Shown here in pieces: positions 1,064 to 11,077 of a DNA stretch of 11,077 bases (positions are counted from its first letter, which is position 1; every line of letters begins with the position of its first letter). The notes beneath the pieces were generated by a model. The model was not told the origin of the DNA and ran no database searches. It saw only the letters and a program-made list of their open reading frames with translations. Source of the DNA: a virus. The translations under genes and the position numbers were made by a program. The DNA is taken from UHGV virus genome UHGV-0128589. One strand, written 5' to 3'.

Positions 1064-3397
1064 TTATTTCGCTGTGGGGTCATCGCACTTCGGCAGCCAG
1101 TCGGCGTTGCTTTCTTCCCTGAGCGCAAGATTGGTCTGTATGCCCTGATTTTTACGGCGCTTCTCATAACTCAGTCCGTACTCTTTTAGCATCGCTGGCA
1201 GTCCCTTGCCGAACATGGTGAGGCTAAGAGTATTCTTGTAGCCGTGGGCCTCCATGTACGCCAGGTAGGCATGATAGAGGTAAAGTCGCGGCTGACGCGG
1301 AATGATGTTGGCATTGCCAATATACATACCCTCAGGTTCCGGCAGCGCCTCCAGATAGCCACAAAAATCAAATGTCGGGTCGGCGTCGCGCTTGATGCTG
1401 AGCGCCTCGTCGGAATTCTGCTGTGACTGGAGCAGTGTGCGCGCGGTCATCGGGTCGCTGAACTTCTGCATTAGCTGGCGCACAATGACGGCCAGCTCGC
1501 GGGCGATTTTGTTCTTAAGCTGCGGGTCGCGTTCTTCCGGGGCAATCTGCTCCGGGAAATGCAGAATCACCCGGCGACGGGAAACACCGCCGCTGCGGTC
1601 AGTAAAGCGCATCGGGTTATTGTTCACGGCCAGAATCACCGCCGGAATATGGGTGGAGTACGCATCCTTGTATTTCGGGTCTACCGATACCGCATCCCCG
1701 CCGGTGATGGCCTTGAGTCCGGCTCCGTCACCACTCCATTTTTCCTGGTCAGGCAGTCGAATCAGCGAGAAGCCAATCAGTGCGGCACGTTCACGCGGTG
1801 ATTCCAGCGTTTCGATGGTGGCCGACGTGGCGTTATCTTCCCCGGCAAGCATGGTCGCAATTTCGGCCAGAATACTTTTCCCGCTGCCGCCGGGCCCGGT
1901 CACCTCAAGAAAGAGCTGCCAGTCGTAGCGGTTCGCCAGCACCATAAACAGCGCGGCCAGAATCACATCGCGTTTTTCTGGTCTGCCACCGGCAGCACGG
2001 TCGAGCCAGCGCCAGAAATCCGGTGCATGGGTTTCCAGCGTTTCGCCCTCCACCGGCGGGGTAAAATCGACATCACAGAGTGTGCGCAGCCAGTGCGATT
2101 TATCATGCGGGTTGAATGTGCCGGTGGCGGTATCAAGTACGCCGTTGCGAAAGCCAATCAGACGCCGTGCCGGGGCGTCCTGCTGCGGAATAATCAGTTT
2201 CAGGGTCTCCACCACCGAGGCAATTTTTCCCGACGAGAACGGTGCGCGCAGACGCTGGAACAACCCGGCCACGTCGCGGGCAAAGTCCGACGGCGGAATG
2301 ATTTTCCATATCCCGGCCTCATAACGGGACAGGAGCTGGCCGTTCGCGTCCACGGCCAGCGCTTCGCCGTAATGCTCATGCACCCGCATCGCTTTTTCAC
2401 TGGTGCTCATGGCGGTAAATTCCGCCTCGCTCATGGTAGTGAAAGGACTGTCAGCCGGTGGCCGGATGGCCTCATAAATGGCTTTCCGCATCGCCTCCTC
2501 ACCTTTCTGTTCAAATGCGTCATTCCAGTCACCGAACACCGGCGGCAGGGCAACAATACCGTCACAGGCTTCTGCGGCCGCTGCGGCTTTACTCTGGCCG
2601 TCGCCGTTCAGGTCGCGGTCGGCGGCGAGGACAATCTGACAGGCCGGGTATTTCTGACGGGCAAGGCTCGCCAGAGAAAGGAGGTTTGCGGACGACAGTG
2701 CCACCATGACGGTTTCCCCGGTCAGGTGATGTACGGTGAGCGCGGTCGCATAGCCCTCCGCTATCCACAGCCGTTTTCCCGCCTGTTTTTTCCCTTCGAT
2801 GGTGTGGCACGCTCCTTTTACCGCCCCGCCTTTCAGGGTGCGTTTGAGACCCTCAGAATTGATGAGCTGAAGGTTAACCAGTGCATCGGTATTGTCATAC
2901 AGCGGGACAACCACATCACCGGCGCGGAACGTCACGCCGCCGGTTTTATGCACGGCCGTGAGCGTCAGACATTCCAGAGCGGGGAAGCCCTTGCGGGTCA
3001 GGTAGGCGTTGCCGCTGGCCGTGCGGGTTTTCTCCATCAGTCTGACGGCCAGCGTGGCCGCCGCTTTACGGTCTGCTTCGGTTTCAGCCTCTGCGGCCAC
3101 AATCACCTCCGGGGCAACCGGCGACAGGTTACCGGCGACGACATTCACCTTTTGGGCTGCCTCTGACGGATTAACGCCGAACACCTTTTCAACCAGTTTC
3201 AGGCCATCCCCTGCGCCGCACTGGTTACAGAACCACGTCCCGCGACCCTCTTTATCGTCAAACCGGAAACGGTCAGAACCGCCGCACACCGGGCAGGGCT
3301 GATGCCGGTTTTTAATGACCTTCACCCCCAGCGCCGGGAGAATGCGCGGCCAGTGGCCGCACGCCTGTTTTACGGTTTCCGTTACGTTCATTTTCAT
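1064..3397 (-). CDS. alpha: P4-type alpha protein: DNA primase / SF3 replicative helicase
   Basis: 777-aa ORF; N-terminal CxxC...CxxC zinc-binding primase region (CPVCGGSDRF...FCNQCGAG); Walker A P-loop GPGGSGKS in the C-terminal half; RBS GGGAGAA upstream; flanked by iterons, as for P4 alpha. Confidence 0.95.
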   Translation of the reverse strand: MKMNVTETVKQACGHWPRILPALGVKVIKNRHQPCPVCGGSDRFRFDDKEGRGTWFCNQCGAGDGLKLVEKVFGVNPSEAAQKVNVVAGNLSPVAPEVIVAAEAETEADRKAAATLAVRLMEKTRTASGNAYLTRKGFPALECLTLTAVHKTGGVTFRAGDVVVPLYDNTDALVNLQLINSEGLKRTLKGGAVKGACHTIEGKKQAGKRLWIAEGYATALTVHHLTGETVMVALSSANLLSLASLARQKYPACQIVLAADRDLNGDGQSKAAAAAEACDGIVALPPVFGDWNDAFEQKGEEAMRKAIYEAIRPPADSPFTTMSEAEFTAMSTSEKAMRVHEHYGEALAVDANGQLLSRYEAGIWKIIPPSDFARDVAGLFQRLRAPFSSGKIASVVETLKLIIPQQDAPARRLIGFRNGVLDTATGTFNPHDKSHWLRTLCDVDFTPPVEGETLETHAPDFWRWLDRAAGGRPEKRDVILAALFMVLANRYDWQLFLEVTGPGGSGKSILAEIATMLAGEDNATSATIETLESPRERAALIGFSLIRLPDQEKWSGDGAGLKAITGGDAVSVDPKYKDAYSTHIPAVILAVNNNPMRFTDRSGGVSRRRVILHFPEQIAPEERDPQLKNKIARELAVIVRQLMQKFSDPMTARTLLQSQQNSDEALSIKRDADPTFDFCGYLEALPEPEGMYIGNANIIPRQPRLYLYHAYLAYMEAHGYKNTLSLTMFGKGLPAMLKEYGLSYEKRRKNQGIQTNLALREESNADWLPKCDDPTAK

Positions 3398-3411
3398 TGT
3401 TTTTTTCTCCC

Positions 3412-3732
3412 TCAGTGCACAACAGGCGATTGCATGTGACGGGCGCAGAGTTCATCCATCACCGCAAGCCCGAGAAAGGACAGTGACGGCGCGGCTTTCA
3501 GTGGCCCGCCTTCCATTAAATCTTCCAGCAGGGCACAGGCAATCAGGCGGCCTTTTTCCTCGCCGTACTGGCGCAGATAGAAGCCTTCCAGTCCGGCAGC
3601 AATGGCGCTTTCCAGTGCATCAAGGGTGAGATGTGGATAGCGGTGCTGACGTTCGCACAGGGTCAGCCAGGCACAGGCCACGGCGCGACGATACAGCGCA
3701 GCACGCAGAACAGGGGATAATGAATTTTTCAT
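3412..3732 (-). CDS. small protein directly upstream of alpha; position matches P4 cnr (copy-number regulator), identity not established
   Basis: 106-aa ORF; its stop is 14 nt before the alpha start; its start overlaps the stop of the upstream ORF (ATGA), so likely co-transcribed. Confidence 0.65.
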
Positions 3733-3956
3733 ACATTGCCCTCCCCGGTCAGCCAGCGCTGATTGCAGCGTTCGACCACGCCGTCGAGCTGGGCGGTCAT
3801 GAGGTAAATCACGGAGGTAAGCTGTAACTGCTGCGCCGGGTCACGACGAATAGTGGCGCAGTCCTGCACCTGCATCAGTTCGCCGACGAGCTGGCCGACA
3901 TTGCGCATATGCTCCAGGCATTCGAGGTCACGGGCGGTAATGGTGGTGTGTCTCAT
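3729..3956 (-). CDS. hypothetical small protein of the left (replication) operon
   Basis: 75-aa ORF overlapping both neighbours by 4 nt (translational coupling); no recognisable motif. Confidence 0.55.
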
Positions 3957-4147
3957 GCGCGCACCTCCGCAACCGGCAGACGGCCAGCGAACGAGAGGAC
4001 GTAATCACGAACGAGGGAAAGGCGTGCGGCGTGTTCATCACCGGCAACGGTGCGGAGCATACAAATACGGGGTTTACGGTCTGCGCGACGTACAGCGGCA
4101 AACACAAAAACAAACTGCGGGTGTGACGGGGTGAGGGTCGTAGCCAT
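3953..4147 (-). CDS. Icd-like small protein (cell-division-inhibitor / P4 kil-position gene); the longer 183-aa ORF in the track is probably an artefact
   Basis: Internal start [16 protein letters not shown]... at 4147 with SD GGAGGT about 8 nt upstream (alternative ATG at 4171); N-terminus resembles proteins annotated Icd-like in P4-like prophages (from memory, unverified). Confidence 0.55.
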
Positions 4148-4350
4148 AGTGGCAACCTCCAATGTTTGCATGTGACTGCTACCACTGGAAACGCCAATTT
4201 CACTGGTGGTAGCCCAGACGGGGTTGGCGTAACCGGCAACATTGGAAACCGGCGCTTCGTGAGAAGCCCCCGCCTGAGCCACCATTACTCGAAGGATCCA
4301 AAGGTAGATAAATCTCTGGATCAAAAATGGATGCACTGAGGCATAGACAC

Positions 4351-4372
4351 AAAAAAAGACGCAAGGCGCGTC
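4351..4372 (-). terminator. candidate intrinsic terminator/attenuator inside the leader between the AlpA-like gene and the Icd-like gene
   Basis: On the minus strand GACGC-GCCTT-GCGTC (5-bp GC stem) immediately followed by TTTTTTT. Confidence 0.4.
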
Positions 4373-4500
4373 CGGTGTCGCCAATGTTGTAAACGGGACG
4401 CCAATCCCGGCTGCCGATTTTGCGACAGCGGGAAAACTATACCTGGAAACGGCAAACGGAAGCAAGCCAGAAAAAGGGACTTTTTGCTGAGCGGCCATCA

Positions 4501-4767
4501 TCATGCGTCATAACTCCGGTTGCGTTCGGCAATGCGATCCGCCATCCATGCGGTGATTTCAGACTGTGCCCACGCCACGTTTTTTCCGCCGAGGGAGATT
4601 TGTTTCGGGAATGCCTCGCGGCTGATGAGGTCGTAAATGGTCGACCGGGACAGGCCGCATAAATGCATCACTTCGGGCAGACGGATAAAGCGCTCCTGAA
4701 CGACATCAGAGACCGGCATCAGCGGGGCGGCAGGGGCAGAAGACGGGGAAGAAAAAGCGGTGTGCAT
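4501..4767 (-). CDS. AlpA/Vis-family helix-turn-helix regulator / excisionase
   Basis: 88-aa ORF with typical AlpA core [46 protein letters not shown]; SD GAGGT 7 nt upstream of the ATG at 4767; internal start at MPVSD also possible. Confidence 0.85.
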
Positions 4768-5034
4768 CGGGCTACCTCATAAAGTCCATACAGTGCCGGT
4801 CGTGTCCGTCCGGCTTCGGGTAGCTCTCTATTTTGTGAATATTTTTACTCAGGGCAACAAGTCATTTTGTAGTGGCTTACCATACAACAGATTGATTTTT
4901 AAACAATGGCAAACGCTGGCAAACAGATGCAAATCACTGCATTACATTGCAGCAACTTTTATTTCTTTTACTTATATATTTTTCTTTATCAATCGAAAAA
5001 AAGTCTAAGTGATATCGTCAGTGCAAAAAACAGA

Positions 5035-5305: not shown

Positions 5306-6043
5306 ATGACTCAGACCGCTGTTATTCCCGACTATCTTAAACCCGCAATGGAACACCTTGAAACTGCCCGGTCAGCGCATCTTGCCAATGCCAGTCGAAT
5401 GGATGAAACCACGGCTGCCATCAGCCAGGTAAAAGCACAAAAAAATGAACTGGAGCAGGAAAATGGCAATGATTCCGGTGCATGGCGCACCGCCTTTCGT
5501 GCCGGTGGTGCTGTGATTACTGACGAGCTGAAACAACGCCATATAGCGCGTGTAGCACGGCGTGAACTGGTACAGGAATGTGACAGCATGACAGAGGTAT
5601 TGTCTTTTGAGCTGGACAACCTAAAGGGAGCCTGTGACAGCACGGCCAGAGCGTACCGCCAGGCACATCACGGCGTCCTCAGCCAGTATGCAAAGCATGA
5701 GCTCGATGTTGCCCTGCGTGAAACCTGTGGTGCTCTCGTCAGGGCAATGAAACTTAACATACTGGTTCTGAATAACCCTCTTGCCAATACCATCGGCCAT
5801 CAGGGATATACCGAACCGGAAAAGGCTGTGATGCAGCAGGTTAAAGCGTGGCTTGAACAGGCAGTGAAGGGCTGCAACATCCGCCTGACCGATGAGCCGG
5901 TGCTGTTTAAAACAGGACTGTCGGCCTCCACGCTGCCTCATATGGAGTATGACGTTGCGGCCACGCCCGGCCAGCGTCAGGTGTGGTTCGAGAAAATGAA
6001 CAAACGTGAGTCTGACCTTAAGGCCCGGGGGTTACTGTCATGA
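5306..6043 (+). CDS. sid: Sid-like capsid size determination (external scaffold) protein
   Basis: 245-aa product from the internal ATG at 5306 with SD GAGGAG upstream; first gene of a sid-delta-psu arrangement; the ORF-track start at 5240 has no RBS. Confidence 0.8.
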   Translation: MTQTAVIPDYLKPAMEHLETARSAHLANASRMDETTAAISQVKAQKNELEQENGNDSGAWRTAFRAGGAVITDELKQRHIARVARRELVQECDSMTEVLSFELDNLKGACDSTARAYRQAHHGVLSQYAKHELDVALRETCGALVRAMKLNILVLNNPLANTIGHQGYTEPEKAVMQQVKAWLEQAVKGCNIRLTDEPVLFKTGLSASTLPHMEYDVAATPGQRQVWFEKMNKRESDLKARGLLS

Positions 6044-6285
6044 TGCGCTGCCCTTTCTGCCGCACGGCGGCCCATGTGCGCACCAGCCGCTATATGTCTG
6101 ACAGCGTCAAAGAGAGCTACCTGCAGTGCCAGAATGTGCACTGCTCGGCGACGTTCAAAACACATGAGTCGATTTTTGAAGTGATCCGCTCGCCGGGTGT
6201 CGATGAGAAACCCGCGCCGGTGCCGACAGCGTCCGTTGCCATCCGCAAGGTAAAAGGCTGCTACAGCTCACCGTTCCGCCATTAA
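6040..6285 (+). CDS. delta: Ogr/Delta-family zinc-finger late transcriptional activator (single domain)
   Basis: 81-aa ORF with CPFC...(21 residues)...CQNVHC zinc-finger spacing; start overlaps the sid stop (ATGA). Confidence 0.85.
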   Translation: MMRCPFCRTAAHVRTSRYMSDSVKESYLQCQNVHCSATFKTHESIFEVIRSPGVDEKPAPVPTASVAIRKVKGCYSSPFRH

Positions 6286-6301: not shown

Positions 6302-6868
6302 GTGACCACCCTGACATTACAGCAGGCGTTTGAAGCCTGTCAGACGAACAAAACGGCGTGGCTGAATCGTAAAGCCGAACTGGCCTCCGCAGAGCAGGAA
6401 TATCAGGAATTATTACTGGATGACAACGCACCGGGTTCCCGCAGATTACAGATGCTACGTGACCTTATCGACGTAAAAAAATGGGAAGTTAATCAGGCCG
6501 CCGGTCGCTATATCTTCTCGCATGAGGAGGTACAGCGCATCAGCATCCGTAACCGTGTGCATGATTTTATGCAGCAGAACGGCGCAGAACTGGCCGCTGC
6601 ACTGGCCCCTGAGCTGATGGGGATTAAAAACCAGCCCGCGATGATAAAAAACCGTGCGCTTGACCGTTCAGTCACTTACCTGAGAGAAGCTCTTTCCGTC
6701 TGGCTGACCGCAGGAAATGAAATTAATTATTCGGCACAGGATAACGACATTTTAACGGCCATCGGATACAGGCCTGACGCGCCCTCGCGGGATGATTATC
6801 GTGAAAAATTCACCCCTGCACAGAACATGATTTACACCCGTCGACGCGCCGAACTGGCCGCGCAGTAG
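6302..6868 (+). CDS. psu: Psu-like polarity suppression / capsid decoration protein
   Basis: 188-aa ORF with GTG start and SD AGGAG upstream; N-terminus TLTLQQAFEACQTNKTAWLNRKAELASAEQEY resembles P4 Psu as I recall it; third gene after sid and delta. Confidence 0.8.
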   Translation: MTTLTLQQAFEACQTNKTAWLNRKAELASAEQEYQELLLDDNAPGSRRLQMLRDLIDVKKWEVNQAAGRYIFSHEEVQRISIRNRVHDFMQQNGAELAAALAPELMGIKNQPAMIKNRALDRSVTYLREALSVWLTAGNEINYSAQDNDILTAIGYRPDAPSRDDYREKFTPAQNMIYTRRRAELAAQ

Positions 6869-7034: not shown

Positions 7035-7065
7035 GCGGGCAGGCGGGGCGGGGAGAGCATTGCGC
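7035..7065. other. candidate cos / packaging region
   Basis: GC-rich tract gggcaggcggggcggggagagcat loosely resembling the P2/P4 cohesive-end sequence as recalled; located between psu and the accessory genes, where cos lies in a permuted P4 prophage. Not an exact match. Confidence 0.25.
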
Positions 7066-7122: not shown

Positions 7123-7143
7123 CATATCTATAAGATAGATATG
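7123..7143. promoter_or_regulatory. perfect 9-bp inverted repeat (candidate operator) upstream of the accessory operon
   Basis: catatctat-aag-atagatatg, about 95 bp upstream of the ATG at 7239. Confidence 0.35.
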
Positions 7144-7238
7144 GCATTACTCCTAAATATGTGTAAAAAATAGTGATACCTATGCAACCCTTTTCTCTGC
7201 TCTTTCAAGGACAAATCTCAGGTTAAGAGAGTCATCAG

Positions 7239-7619
7239 ATGCTAAATCATATTTATGGAATTGTTGGTATAGTTGGCACATTAGTTACGATTGTGACGAG
7301 TTACATCAGAAATCAAGAATTGTCGCAATGGTTCCTTGTATGTTCTGGTTGGCTTACGGCTCTATTGATAGGTTGGTTCACGCATAGAACTATTAAAATT
7401 CTAAGCAAAGATCACAAAGAAACCATCATTAGTAATGATGGTATAAAGCAAACGCTTATAGAGCGGAATGAAACATTAACCACACAACTTACGCATGCAT
7501 TAGAACAGAAAGAAAAAATGGAAGGAATCGCGGCTTATTTAGCAACTCAGAACCCACAAATTAACGCCATGCCTAGAGCCATCGCGCGACAAGAAAATAC
7601 TGAGCTAGGAGGTAATTAA
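7239..7619 (+). CDS. small two-transmembrane-helix protein with C-terminal charged/helical tail; first gene of the accessory operon
   Basis: 126-aa ORF; hydrophobic segments IYGIVGIVGTLVTIVTSYI and WFLVCSGWLTALLIGWF; RBS AAGAGAG 7 nt upstream; AT-rich codon usage unlike the core genes. Confidence 0.7.
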   Translation: MLNHIYGIVGIVGTLVTIVTSYIRNQELSQWFLVCSGWLTALLIGWFTHRTIKILSKDHKETIISNDGIKQTLIERNETLTTQLTHALEQKEKMEGIAAYLATQNPQINAMPRAIARQENTELGGN

Positions 7620-7620
7620 G

Positions 7621-8685
7621 ATGAAAGTAAATTTTGATAGTTATTCATATTATCCTGCATTAAGAACTCGTGCAGCTGAAATACTTGGCTTGAGTAAGCT
7701 TGCTCATGATAAGAAAGAGAAAGTACTTCCACTTATAACCTTAGGGAAATGGCCCCGCTCAGATGAAATTCAAGTTTCTCTTGATAAGAGTCTGGAAGCA
7801 ATGAATAACTTGCCTTTTATTCTGGACGTTACTCAAGAGAACAAGCATCATTGCGCATCAAGCTTTGATCTTCTATCTTCCGAAAATAATTTTTCAAACT
7901 GGATAGCTTTCTGCTCTAAGAATGAGAATATTATCCCCGTAGTTCAAATGCCTGAATCTGCAAGATTAAGGGATATAGTACAGCAAGCAAGAATACTTGA
8001 AGAAAATAAAGGTTCCATTGCATTTCGCATAAAGAACCTTAACACTGATATAAATAAAACAATAGCATCACTTGTGTCTCTCGACTCCCCTGAAAATGCG
8101 GTTATATTCATAGACTTGGGTTACATTCGCGGACATGTCTCAGCAATGACGTCTGCTGCCATAAGTGCAATCAACCAAATAAGGACAGAAATTCCTGAAG
8201 CTATAATTAGTGTACTGTCGACTAGTTTCCCAAGTTCGGTCGCAAACTTTGCAGGAGAAAATGGTCAATCTGGTTATATTGACATTATGGAAAGAGAATT
8301 CCACCAAACTATTGGTGGTCGAGGAGTATCTATATACGGAGATCATAGTTCAATTCACTCTGTTGTATATGATGATGTTGGTGGACGTTATGTCCCAAGA
8401 ATTGACATTGCATTAGATGATGCTTGGTTTTTTGAGAGAAGACCAGGACTTGATAGTAAAGGCTATATAGAAGCAGCAAGAGCGATTCTTAAAAGATACC
8501 CTAATTATCTTGAAGAAGAATCCTGGGGTGCGCTGATGATTAAAAACGCTGCATCAGGCGATATTGCTGGTATGGGGAGTCCCGCTAAATGGATTTCTGT
8601 GCGCGTGAACCTTCATATAACAAAGCAAATTGAGCTATCAGAAGCACTTAAAACAGATTACGATCCTGAAGAGGATTTCTTCTAA
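7621..8685 (+). CDS. uncharacterised 354-aa protein, second gene of the accessory operon; function unknown
   Basis: Long ORF starting 1 nt after the upstream stop; strong SD AGGAGGT 9 nt upstream, embedded in the last codons of the upstream gene; no Walker or other catalytic motif recognisable by eye. Confidence 0.8.
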   Translation: MKVNFDSYSYYPALRTRAAEILGLSKLAHDKKEKVLPLITLGKWPRSDEIQVSLDKSLEAMNNLPFILDVTQENKHHCASSFDLLSSENNFSNWIAFCSKNENIIPVVQMPESARLRDIVQQARILEENKGSIAFRIKNLNTDINKTIASLVSLDSPENAVIFIDLGYIRGHVSAMTSAAISAINQIRTEIPEAIISVLSTSFPSSVANFAGENGQSGYIDIMEREFHQTIGGRGVSIYGDHSSIHSVVYDDVGGRYVPRIDIALDDAWFFERRPGLDSKGYIEAARAILKRYPNYLEEESWGALMIKNAASGDIAGMGSPAKWISVRVNLHITKQIELSEALKTDYDPEEDFF

Positions 8686-8710
8686 AAAATAAGGGAGGGC
8701 AGCCTCCCTT
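8683..8710 (-). terminator. terminator hairpin between the convergent accessory genes (strongest for the minus-strand gene)
   Basis: aagggagg-gcag-cctccctt perfect 8-bp stem; on the minus strand it is followed by ATTTTTT. Confidence 0.55.
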
Positions 8711-9503
8711 ATCGCACGACCCTTTTCAAAACTTTGATGGGAGTGATACTCCCAACCTCTCCGTGCTTTCTCATAAACCCCTCAATATCAACTGTATAAA
8801 AATCATCTAATTTTTCATCAGTATTATCTTCGAAATCTTTAAAGTGATTATGTTCCCGTCTCTTTTTTGATTTACTTAACAAAGTCAAATCGTTAGCATT
8901 CGATAATTCGCTACCTGCTAATTTCTTCAAGTAATCATCAGAAGTTTCTTTATAGCGTTGCTTAATTGCTTTAAGCGCAAAGTCTCTAATTCTAGATAGG
9001 GGAATTTGTTCAGCTATACGCTCTAAAGCCTCACGACCAGACTCGAGTAAAAACTTTTTCCCATTTTCAACAAGAAGTAATTGCAACTCTTTTTTCAGTA
9101 AGAAATTAATATAAACCTTCTTATTACCGAGTACTGCCGTACGCCCACGCTGAACTATTTTAAAACGAATGCCTTTACTAGTATTTATGTATTCAATAAC
9201 ACCAACATCTGATGTTACTTTCTTCGCAATTTCATAAGTAAATTTTGGGGCACAAACAACAGTTACCTTTTCAAAACGAGATGTAAAGGTTTCTAACTGA
9301 CCATCTAATCTTTTAAGAGAGTCAAAATCACTTTTTATTTCAAAAGCTTGCAAGTGTCCATTCGCAACGGCCAGATCAGCGCGGCGACTCCAATTCGCTA
9401 CAACCATTTCATTAATAATGGTTGCGTTCTCTAACAAGCCTTTTTTAAAAAGCCAGTCAATAAATGCGACTTTTACATCTTGCTCTCTTAATAAAAATGA
9501 CAT
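8709..9503 (-). CDS. stand-alone protein with N-terminal PD-(D/E)xK nuclease-like domain and charged helical C-terminal region
   Basis: 264-aa ORF; motif order E7 ... RADLAV (D42) ... AFEIKSD (E54-x-K56) fits the PD-(D/E)xK core; own extended -10 promoter and own terminator; very AT-rich. Confidence 0.8.
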   Translation of the reverse strand: MSFLLREQDVKVAFIDWLFKKGLLENATIINEMVVANWSRRADLAVANGHLQAFEIKSDFDSLKRLDGQLETFTSRFEKVTVVCAPKFTYEIAKKVTSDVGVIEYINTSKGIRFKIVQRGRTAVLGNKKVYINFLLKKELQLLLVENGKKFLLESGREALERIAEQIPLSRIRDFALKAIKQRYKETSDDYLKKLAGSELSNANDLTLLSKSKKRREHNHFKDFEDNTDEKLDDFYTVDIEGFMRKHGEVGSITPIKVLKRVVR

Positions 9504-9529
9504 AATCTCGTCACACCCTTAAAAATTGT

Positions 9530-9545
9530 TAAAAATTATAGCAAA
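9530..9545 (-). promoter_or_regulatory. candidate extended -10 promoter (TGcTATAAT) for the 8709..9503 gene
   Basis: Minus strand reads ttgcTATAATtttt in the 91-bp gap between the int stop and the downstream gene start. Confidence 0.4.
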
Positions 9546-9594
9546 AAAAACAAACTCCATCCATTATTCCTCTTGAGTTTTTTTTGATAAAGAG

Positions 9595-10872
9595 CTAGAT
9601 GTCATTTATTTTACTCCCACAGTCATACGGTGATATATACTCCTTATTATTTAGATCTAAATAATCAGCCCACCACTGAACCATTTTGCGCCTTTCATCT
9701 AAATGTTCTGATGTATGAATATAAGCAGCCCTAACGCCATTACGTTCTGTGTGACTCAACTGACGTTCTATAGCGTCATCGCTCCATAATCCTGACTCAC
9801 CCAGCGCACCACGGGCCATCGTTCTAAATCCATGCCCGCAAACTTCAGTTTTCGTGTCATAGCCCATCGCACGCAATGCGCTGTTTACCGTGTTTTCACT
9901 CATAACCTTAGTTGCGTCATGATCCCCCGGGAACAGCAGCTCTTTATCACCACTAATTTGCTTGAGCTGCTCTAATAAAACCATCGCCTGCCGACTGAGA
10001 GGAACAATATGCTCCTCTTTCATTTTCATGCCACGATACGAGTAACGCACGCCCTTAATTTCTTCTCGCTTTGCAGGTATACGCCAAAGAGATTTATCGA
10101 AGTCGAACTCATCCCAACGCGCGAAACGCAACTCACTGGAACGCACAAAAGTTAGTAAGGAAAGCTCAACCGCGATCCGTGTCATTACACGGCCACGATA
10201 TGCAGCAAGACGTGCAAGAAACTCAGGGAACCGGCTAGAGGGTAAAGCGGGGTAATGTCGCGCTTTGGTTGTCGATAGCGCACCGGCCATATCACTGGCT
10301 GGATTTGAGTCGATGTAATCGTTCTGTACTGCATAACGCATGATAGCCGTGACACGCTGCTGAAGACGCTGTGCGACGTCATGCTTACCACTTGCATCAA
10401 CTTTTTTAATCGGGGCTAACAGGTGGCTAGTCTTGAGCTGGCGAATGTCGGACGAACCAATATGAGGGAAGATATAAAGCTCAAGATAGCGAAGAACGCG
10501 CGATCGATGGTCTTCACTCCAGCGCTTGTTACTGGCGTGCCATTCACGAGCAATGGTTTCGAAAGTATATGCCCCCGAATTCTCGGCCTGAGCTTCTTTC
10601 TGTTCGGCTTTTGGGTCAATGCCCTGCACTAGCAGCTTTTTAGCTTCATCGCGCTTTGCTCTTGCCTGAGCAAGCGTCACAGTAGGCCAAACACCAAAAG
10701 CGAGGCGATCCTCTTTTTTGTCTGAGGGGCGTCTGTATTTCATGCGCCAGTATTTAGAACCCTTAGCCGAAATCTCGAGATACAAACCGCCGCCATCGGC
10801 CATTTTGTAGGTTTTTTCTTTTGGCTTTGCGGTCTCGACCTGTCTGGCGTTGAGCTTCATTTGGGGGCACAT
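9595..10872 (-). CDS. int: P4-type tyrosine integrase / site-specific recombinase
   Basis: 425-aa ORF; N-terminus with the ...KTYKMADGGGLYLEI... motif typical of P4-family integrases; C-terminal HGFRTMARG and downstream tyrosine (VRAAYIH); about 150 bp from the tRNA 3-prime end. Start may be the ATG at 10860 (MKLNARQ). Confidence 0.95.
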   Translation of the reverse strand: MCPQMKLNARQVETAKPKEKTYKMADGGGLYLEISAKGSKYWRMKYRRPSDKKEDRLAFGVWPTVTLAQARAKRDEAKKLLVQGIDPKAEQKEAQAENSGAYTFETIAREWHASNKRWSEDHRSRVLRYLELYIFPHIGSSDIRQLKTSHLLAPIKKVDASGKHDVAQRLQQRVTAIMRYAVQNDYIDSNPASDMAGALSTTKARHYPALPSSRFPEFLARLAAYRGRVMTRIAVELSLLTFVRSSELRFARWDEFDFDKSLWRIPAKREEIKGVRYSYRGMKMKEEHIVPLSRQAMVLLEQLKQISGDKELLFPGDHDATKVMSENTVNSALRAMGYDTKTEVCGHGFRTMARGALGESGLWSDDAIERQLSHTERNGVRAAYIHTSEHLDERRKMVQWWADYLDLNNKEYISPYDCGSKINDI

Positions 10873-10910
10873 TTCTAATCGAAGTTAAGATGCCCCCAAT
10901 TATGCCCCCA
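10862..10910. repeat. TGCCCCCA repeats (two direct, one inverted) at the int start, candidate integrase-binding or autoregulatory sites
   Basis: tgggggca at 10862-10869 (inverted, overlapping the first int codons); tgccccca at 10891-10898 and 10903-10910. Confidence 0.4.
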
Positions 10911-11023
10911 ATGACATCAGGATTTCAACGGACAACCTCGGACGACTCAGGACGTAAAAATCGCTGCAAGCATTGATTTTTAAGGGATAATTGGACTTTC
11001 TCGGATGGTCTTGGAAGTACTTA

Positions 11024-11077
11024 TGGTGCCGAAGGCCGGACTCGAACCGGCACGTATTTCTACGGTTGATTTTGAAT
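11024..11077 (-). tRNA. leuX: tRNA-Leu(CAA), leuX-type, 3-prime portion only (truncated by the window edge)
   Basis: Reverse complement reads ATTCAAAATCAACCGTAGAAATACGTGCCGGTTCGAGTCCGGCCTTCGGCACCA: anticodon loop with CAA, variable arm, T-arm GGTTCGAGTCC and acceptor end with CCA; matches E. coli leuX as I recall it. Confidence 0.85.

Follow-up and report, generated by a model that had tools for sequence, protein, structure and literature searches.

We examined a window of 11,077 nucleotides, the whole of the stretch presented here as UHGV virus genome UHGV-0128589, and found that the two genes at 7239-8685, originally predicted to be a coupled pair of a small membrane protein and a 354-aa partner, are almost certainly a diverged allele of gop and beta, and that together with a third, convergent gene, cII, they make up a Gop-Beta-cII anti-phage cassette; this identification comes from protein profile matches and alignments to satellite P4. 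On the plus strand, gop (7239..7619) encodes a small protein of 126 aa with two predicted transmembrane segments, and beta (7621..8685) encodes a cytoplasmic protein of 354 aa, predicted to be a triosephosphate isomerase (TIM) barrel and reported to neutralise Gop. The third gene, cII (8709..9503, minus strand), encodes 264 aa and ends 23 nt from the beta stop. The original prediction described a two-gene module, of which the tight joining of gop and beta stands, while the unit as a whole has three genes and the convergent cII had been overlooked.

Each of the three proteins matches its PADLOC model over its full length: Gop (residues 1-126 of 126) at 5.7e-73, Beta at 3.2e-188 and cII at 1.5e-116. 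Beta also matches Pfam PF14350 (Beta_protein, 3.8e-54), and cII matches NCBIfam sce7726_fam (sce7726 / PF26915, 3e-41). Aligned with the proteins of P4 (X51522), Gop, Beta and cII are 59%, 74% and 56% identical, respectively, with Gop being 7 residues shorter than its P4 counterpart, and the DNA of the cassette is about 69% identical (blastn). No evidence contradicted the gene identities. The suggestion that the second protein belongs to a family found in the P4 hotspot (gop/beta/cII) was therefore correct, as PADLOC, Pfam and the P4 alignments all identify the pair as gop and beta. The novelty implied for the pair falls away, in that the 354-aa protein matches a characterised family (PF14350), an outcome that the original prediction had itself counted against it. 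The exact three proteins are present in NCBI under consecutive accessions from E. coli, as 'protein gop', 'protein beta' and 'sce7726 family protein', and an exact-protein look-up returned near-identical copies in Salmonella, Klebsiella, Enterobacter, Serratia and others, commonly in draft genomes. Because these proteins are already named in NCBI and the system is detected by PADLOC, the gop-beta pair is an already known and already annotated member of a known system. In 5,426 complete E. coli genomes, a megablast search with the cassette (sensitive down to about 85% DNA identity) returned no copy, its hits being confined to the psu-cos flank and to weak similarity with cII. The same search against phage records returned nothing because the allele is too diverged from that of P4, and it was protein comparison that settled the identity. 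One 145-aa member of the Gop cluster (P0277) carries the NCBI name 'GtrA family protein'; Gop matches Pfam GtrA_DPMS_TM weakly (E 0.007, below the cut-off), a match that is probably spurious, arising between hydrophobic segments, and a source of misannotation.

The closest known system is that of P4 itself (X51522 / NC_001609; PADLOC gop_beta_cll; system 7 of Rousset et al. 2022), whose genes are the same and share their order, their orientation and their place in the hotspot. Both cassettes share the ribosome-binding sequence placed inside gop, the cII terminator between the convergent genes and the full-length hidden Markov model (HMM) matches of all three proteins, whereas the window differs in carrying an allele diverged to the extent given above. 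The junction of gop and beta reads GAG CTA GGA GGT AAT TAA g ATG, just as had been described: the Shine-Dalgarno (SD) sequence AGGAGGT (7607..7613, plus strand) lies within the final gop codons and 7 nt ahead of the beta start, the stop occupies 7617-7619, and a single spacer base precedes the ATG at 7621. The P4 junction is of the same type (GGAGG, TAA, 2 nt, ATG), and GGAGG or AAGGAG equivalents occur at most of the homologous junctions examined. Since the full-length family matches are joined by a tight, SD-bearing junction that recurs in P4 and in most Gop-partnered loci, the pair of open reading frames (ORFs) is, to judge from the sequence, not a product of chance. This arrangement shows gop and beta to be one predicted operon-type expression unit and supports translational coupling between them. 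The stronger claim, that co-expression is obligate, is unproven because beta has a strong SD of its own, although operon-type co-expression and coupling hold up.

The two hydrophobic helices and charged tail described for the 126-aa product are present, with peaks at residues 5-23 (1.92) and 28-46 (1.34) in a Kyte-Doolittle profile with 19-residue windows, and a tail of 77 residues containing 10 K/R and 10 D/E. A cluster of K/R residues stands directly after the second hydrophobic segment, and by the positive-inside rule this suggests an N-in/C-in hairpin whose tail is cytoplasmic and probably helical. Despite the overall identity of 59%, the C-terminal motif IAAYLATQNPQINAMPR is nearly identical in P4.

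The structure prediction proposed for the 354-aa protein was carried out with AlphaFold2, and Beta models as a TIM barrel with an alternating strand-helix pattern (mean predicted local distance difference test, pLDDT, 92.9; predicted template modelling score, pTM, 0.91). The alignment of 70 homologues from which this model was built contains 37 invariant positions, and the invariant polar residues R15/R17, D69, Q109, R170, S202 and D241/H246 fall at or just past the C-terminal ends of predicted strands, a placement taken from the secondary-structure string and not from coordinates. In TIM barrels, the active sites lie at the C-terminal strand ends. Profile searches of Beta and of cII against PDB sequences returned nothing meaningful.

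The N-terminal part of cII is, in its predicted structure (pLDDT 87), a PD-(D/E)xK nuclease fold, with the alpha-beta-beta-beta-alpha-beta core and the D...(D/E)xK motif of that family both found, the motif being intact as E32, D43 and E55-x-K57 (D...ExK). Across 60 aligned homologues, the invariant residues are E32, R41, D43, E55, K57, S58, D61, R65 and Q69. It is followed by a helical, possibly SAP-like region with a predicted role in DNA binding, and cII as a whole is a predicted DNA-binding nuclease. The gene is transcribed towards gop-beta and, as read from the sequence, terminated at their boundary by a predicted Rho-independent terminator (8683..8713, minus strand; 11-bp stem, 4-nt loop, U6) that fills the 23-nt gap, includes the cII stop codon and adjoins that of beta. 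The hairpin was missed by the terminator scan and found by direct RNA folding (-16.3 kcal/mol, z = -2.9), and the P4 record X51522 has an annotated cII terminator at the equivalent position.

To describe the neighbourhood of beta more widely, we compared 43 distinct Beta loci, comprising the window, P4, six genome or metagenome loci and 35 IMG/VR loci, with Beta proteins 30-95% identical. In 34 of the 43, the gene directly upstream of beta is a small Gop-like ORF (32 recognised by HMM and 2 by two hydrophobic peaks only). Most gaps between the Gop-like ORF and beta in these 34 loci fall between -11 and +11 nt, the outliers being -62 and +26, and in most of them beta is preceded by an SD-like motif. 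In every one of the 42 loci with sequence downstream of beta, a convergent cII-like gene directly adjoins it, the two 3' ends ranging from a 74 nt overlap to 77 nt apart. Seven IMG/VR prophage loci (L036, L040-L043, L046 and L048), with Beta at 32-37% identity, lack Gop; they represent six distinct beta sequences, as L041 duplicates L040. In each of these, a CI-like repressor (HTH_3 plus Peptidase_S24) lies directly upstream of Beta-cII, at around 2200-4800. Divergent Cro-like and CP76-type regulators are also present in L041, which would place the Beta-cII genes of at least this locus in a prophage immunity region.

The pattern extends to more distant relatives. A profile search of 1.84 billion representatives returned 1,340 Beta clusters at E <= 1e-3 and 326 at E <= 1e-30, and in five distant representatives a convergent cII-like gene is adjacent in every case; four of these genes were confirmed by Pfam or PADLOC, and the fifth, in L055, is truncated by the contig, with the PADLOC cll match (2.9e-18) covering the fragment only. 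An upstream Peptidase_M78 gene overlaps or abuts beta in four of the five (L049 2508-4689; L050/L051 2459-4647; L053 1773-4031; L055 2049-4218). The M78 genes of L049 and L053, the two tested in PADLOC, match capP (4e-36 and 5e-28) and, weakly, PD-Lambda-2_B. The upstream position is thus filled variously, by Gop, by a CapP-like M78 peptidase or by a CI-like repressor. Judged by these neighbourhoods, the conserved core is Beta with its convergent cII rather than Gop with Beta, a point that the original prediction had missed. As a general account of the family, Beta-cII as a core with interchangeable upstream partners (Gop, M78 or a position behind CI), with Gop-Beta not being the basic unit, has in our estimate close to an even chance of being right.

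These comparisons also bring in PD-lambda-2, whose third component is a Beta-family protein. The Beta of the window matches PD-Lambda-2_C weakly (2e-9), and the upstream M78 peptidase of distant Beta loci resembles the system through its PD-Lambda-2_B match. The window differs from PD-lambda-2 in having no HigB-like and Xre-peptidase genes, with the two-segment Gop upstream instead. We did not assign the cassette to PD-lambda-2, as the weak matches to PD-Lambda-2_C come from Beta only and Gop matches no PD-lambda-2 model. The M78 genes of the distant loci suggest that PD-lambda-2-type systems and Gop-Beta-cII belong to one family, and that PD-lambda-2-like loci may contain a convergent cII-like gene that has gone unrecognised.

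Published work on the P4-type system supplies the functional side. Rousset et al. 2022 (PMC9122126) report protection against lambda and P1 by the cloned gop-beta-cII genes and, citing Ghisotti 1990, describe the P4 allele of Gop as toxic without Beta. The phage accessory gene orf184 triggers cell death via the gop-beta-cII of ECOR59 (2023 preprint, bioRxiv 10.1101/2023.04.06.535777). The idea that a membrane protein and its partner form an abortive-infection module agrees with these data (PMC9122126; bioRxiv 10.1101/2023.04.06.535777). In the literature searched, whose coverage of subscription journals may be incomplete, we found neither a biochemical mechanism nor a gene-by-gene dissection of defence.

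The mechanism we propose is as follows. Gop would sit in the inner membrane as a hairpin with its cytoplasmic tail held inactive by Beta, and the tight gop-beta junction would ensure that Beta is supplied whenever Gop is made. A phage product would disturb Beta or the Beta-cII pair, and Gop, once freed, would damage the membrane; cII, as a predicted nuclease possibly licensed by the same perturbation, would then act on DNA, and the infected cell would die or stall ahead of phage release. As an overall explanation, a Gop-Beta-cII cassette in a P4-like hotspot working through this mechanism is very probable. An outcome of the abortive-infection type is likely, and for the particular step in which Beta sequesters Gop we consider the chances evenly balanced. 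RexA and RexB of lambda offer a parallel, as a soluble partner and a small membrane protein encoded by a resident mobile element and leading to cell death or growth arrest, as proposed here. The two systems have no sequence or fold relationship, and differ in that the membrane protein is here encoded first and a third gene, of nuclease fold, is always present. In some prophages, Beta-cII lies directly 3' of the CI repressor gene, an arrangement that recalls rexAB behind lambda cI.

Several observations weigh against a simple toxin-antitoxin mechanism. First, Beta is a predicted TIM barrel of 354 aa with some 37 invariant residues, many of them polar and at C-terminal strand ends, and in the model this set is more suggestive of a pocket for catalysis or ligand binding than of a plug. 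Second, Beta is found without Gop in prophage and other loci. Third, the Beta-like protein of PD-lambda-2 is dispensable for neutralising the toxin and required for defence (Vassallo et al. 2022, PMC9519451). Finally, the functional data come from the P4 and ECOR59 alleles, while the proteins of the window are 56-74% identical to those of P4. A canonical type II toxin-antitoxin pair was also considered and rejected, since Beta is a 354-aa TIM barrel by prediction, has no helix-turn-helix or ribbon-helix-helix domain, and is encoded second.

The comparison of neighbourhoods gives weight to a different division of labour, which we regard as a real possibility that falls somewhat short of even. 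Under it, Beta, as an enzyme or ligand sensor, and cII, as a DNA nuclease, would be a sensor-effector core to which one clade would have added Gop as a membrane effector or anchor; defence would then consist mainly of cII-dependent attack on nucleic acid under Beta control, with Gop toxicity as a side effect of an unbalanced complex. The constant adjacency of convergent cII to beta, in 42 of 42 P4-type and viral loci with downstream sequence and in the five distant representatives, speaks for such a core, as does the exchange of upstream partners, among them a CapP-like M78 peptidase overlapping the beta start and a CI-like HTH-S24 repressor. The invariant E32, D43 and E55-x-K57 of cII within a predicted PD-(D/E)xK fold, the conserved barrel face of Beta, and the need for PD-lambda-2C in defence and not in toxin neutralisation point the same way. 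Set against this, the one piece of direct functional evidence on the pair is the relief of Gop toxicity by Beta, known from the literature, and the nuclease activity of cII is a prediction only.

Toxin-plus-neutraliser genetics and the presence of the cassette on several kinds of mobile element would also fit an addiction module that stabilises the satellite or mobile element by post-segregational killing, with phage protection being incidental. We consider this unlikely, as the system, when cloned by itself, was reproducibly protective against lambda and P1 and reacts to one particular phage gene, Beta has no labile-antitoxin features, and integrated satellites have no need of plasmid-style stabilisation. 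That Gop, as a small, predicted inner-membrane protein that a mobile element encodes, is a superinfection-exclusion protein blocking phage DNA entry, with Beta as chaperone or regulator, is very improbable, since a phage gene expressed inside the cell triggers death with no injection step and Gop is toxic by itself.

The genomic setting agrees with the assignment of the cassette. The window is a P4-like satellite, with alpha, sid, delta, psu, cos and int present; its alpha primase, ORF106 and int show 80-90% DNA identity to P4, and Psu and an Ogr/Delta zinc finger were detected by Pfam. The hotspot of P4 lies beside cos and is occupied in P4 by gop, beta and cII (Rousset et al. 2022, PMC9122126), and gop-beta-cII is likewise named among its contents by Domainator (PMC11754643). 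In the window, the three genes lie in this position, between cos/psu and int. The left flank is the conserved psu (6302..6868, plus strand; Pfam Psu 2.7e-89), and the left edge of the hotspot is marked by a cos-like site, GGCGGGGCGGGGAGAGCAT (7042..7060, plus strand), which can be aligned to GGCGAGGCGGGGAAAGCAC at the left end of the P4 genome. The next gene is gop, likewise the first to follow cos in P4, and the conserved right flank is a P4-type integrase (9595..10872, minus strand; 84-90% DNA identity to P4 int). The delta gene (6040-6285) encodes 81 aa with a single Ogr/Delta zinc finger, compared with 166 aa in P4, and sid encodes 267 aa compared with 244 aa. The right end of the window (11022-11077) is 100% identical to annotated tRNA-Leu genes in Salmonella genomes, and is expected to be a P4-type attachment site beside int.

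The cassette appears as a mobile unit at 7133..9554 (no strand assigned), which we delimited by blastn to a Salmonella locus (L002) and by low guanine-plus-cytosine (GC) content. This block is 87% identical to L002 over 2.4 kb, and it is taken as the mobile unit because the similarity is limited to it, the L002 flanks being type IV pilus genes unrelated to the window, with no satellite around the cassette. The GC content of gop, beta and cII is 35-38%, that of the alpha, sid and psu backbone 52-59% and that of int 48%; the sharp drop at 7239-9503 fits a horizontally exchanged cassette. The settings in which the cassette occurs include P4-like satellites and prophages, as well as loci close to the conjugation gene TrbL and one bordered by type IV pilus genes. 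Upstream of gop, a conserved block (7133..7238, plus strand) that includes ATGGCATTA..CTCCTAAATATGTGTAAAAAATAG is kept in P4 and in the Salmonella cassette and is a candidate promoter region for gop-beta, although scanning for consensus promoters gave no strong sigma-70 site in this block. A stretch covering the 5' end of int and the sequence just upstream (10851-10928) is 79% identical over 78 nt to L002 7999-8076, just beyond cII; L002 otherwise has no P4 integrase, and the stretch may be a remnant of a P4-like element.

For the biology of this family, the clues to mechanism are the TIM-barrel model of Beta, the predicted nuclease fold of cII and the pairing of Beta and cII with swappable upstream partners. 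This computational, family-level picture, in which a TIM-barrel Beta and a nuclease cII form a conserved core, may be the only new part of the analysis. If Beta-cII is indeed the core, Beta would be a sensor or enzyme and not an antitoxin, PD-lambda-2 and Gop-Beta-cII would count as variants within a single broader family, and cII, lying on the opposite strand, may have escaped notice in PD-lambda-2-type systems.
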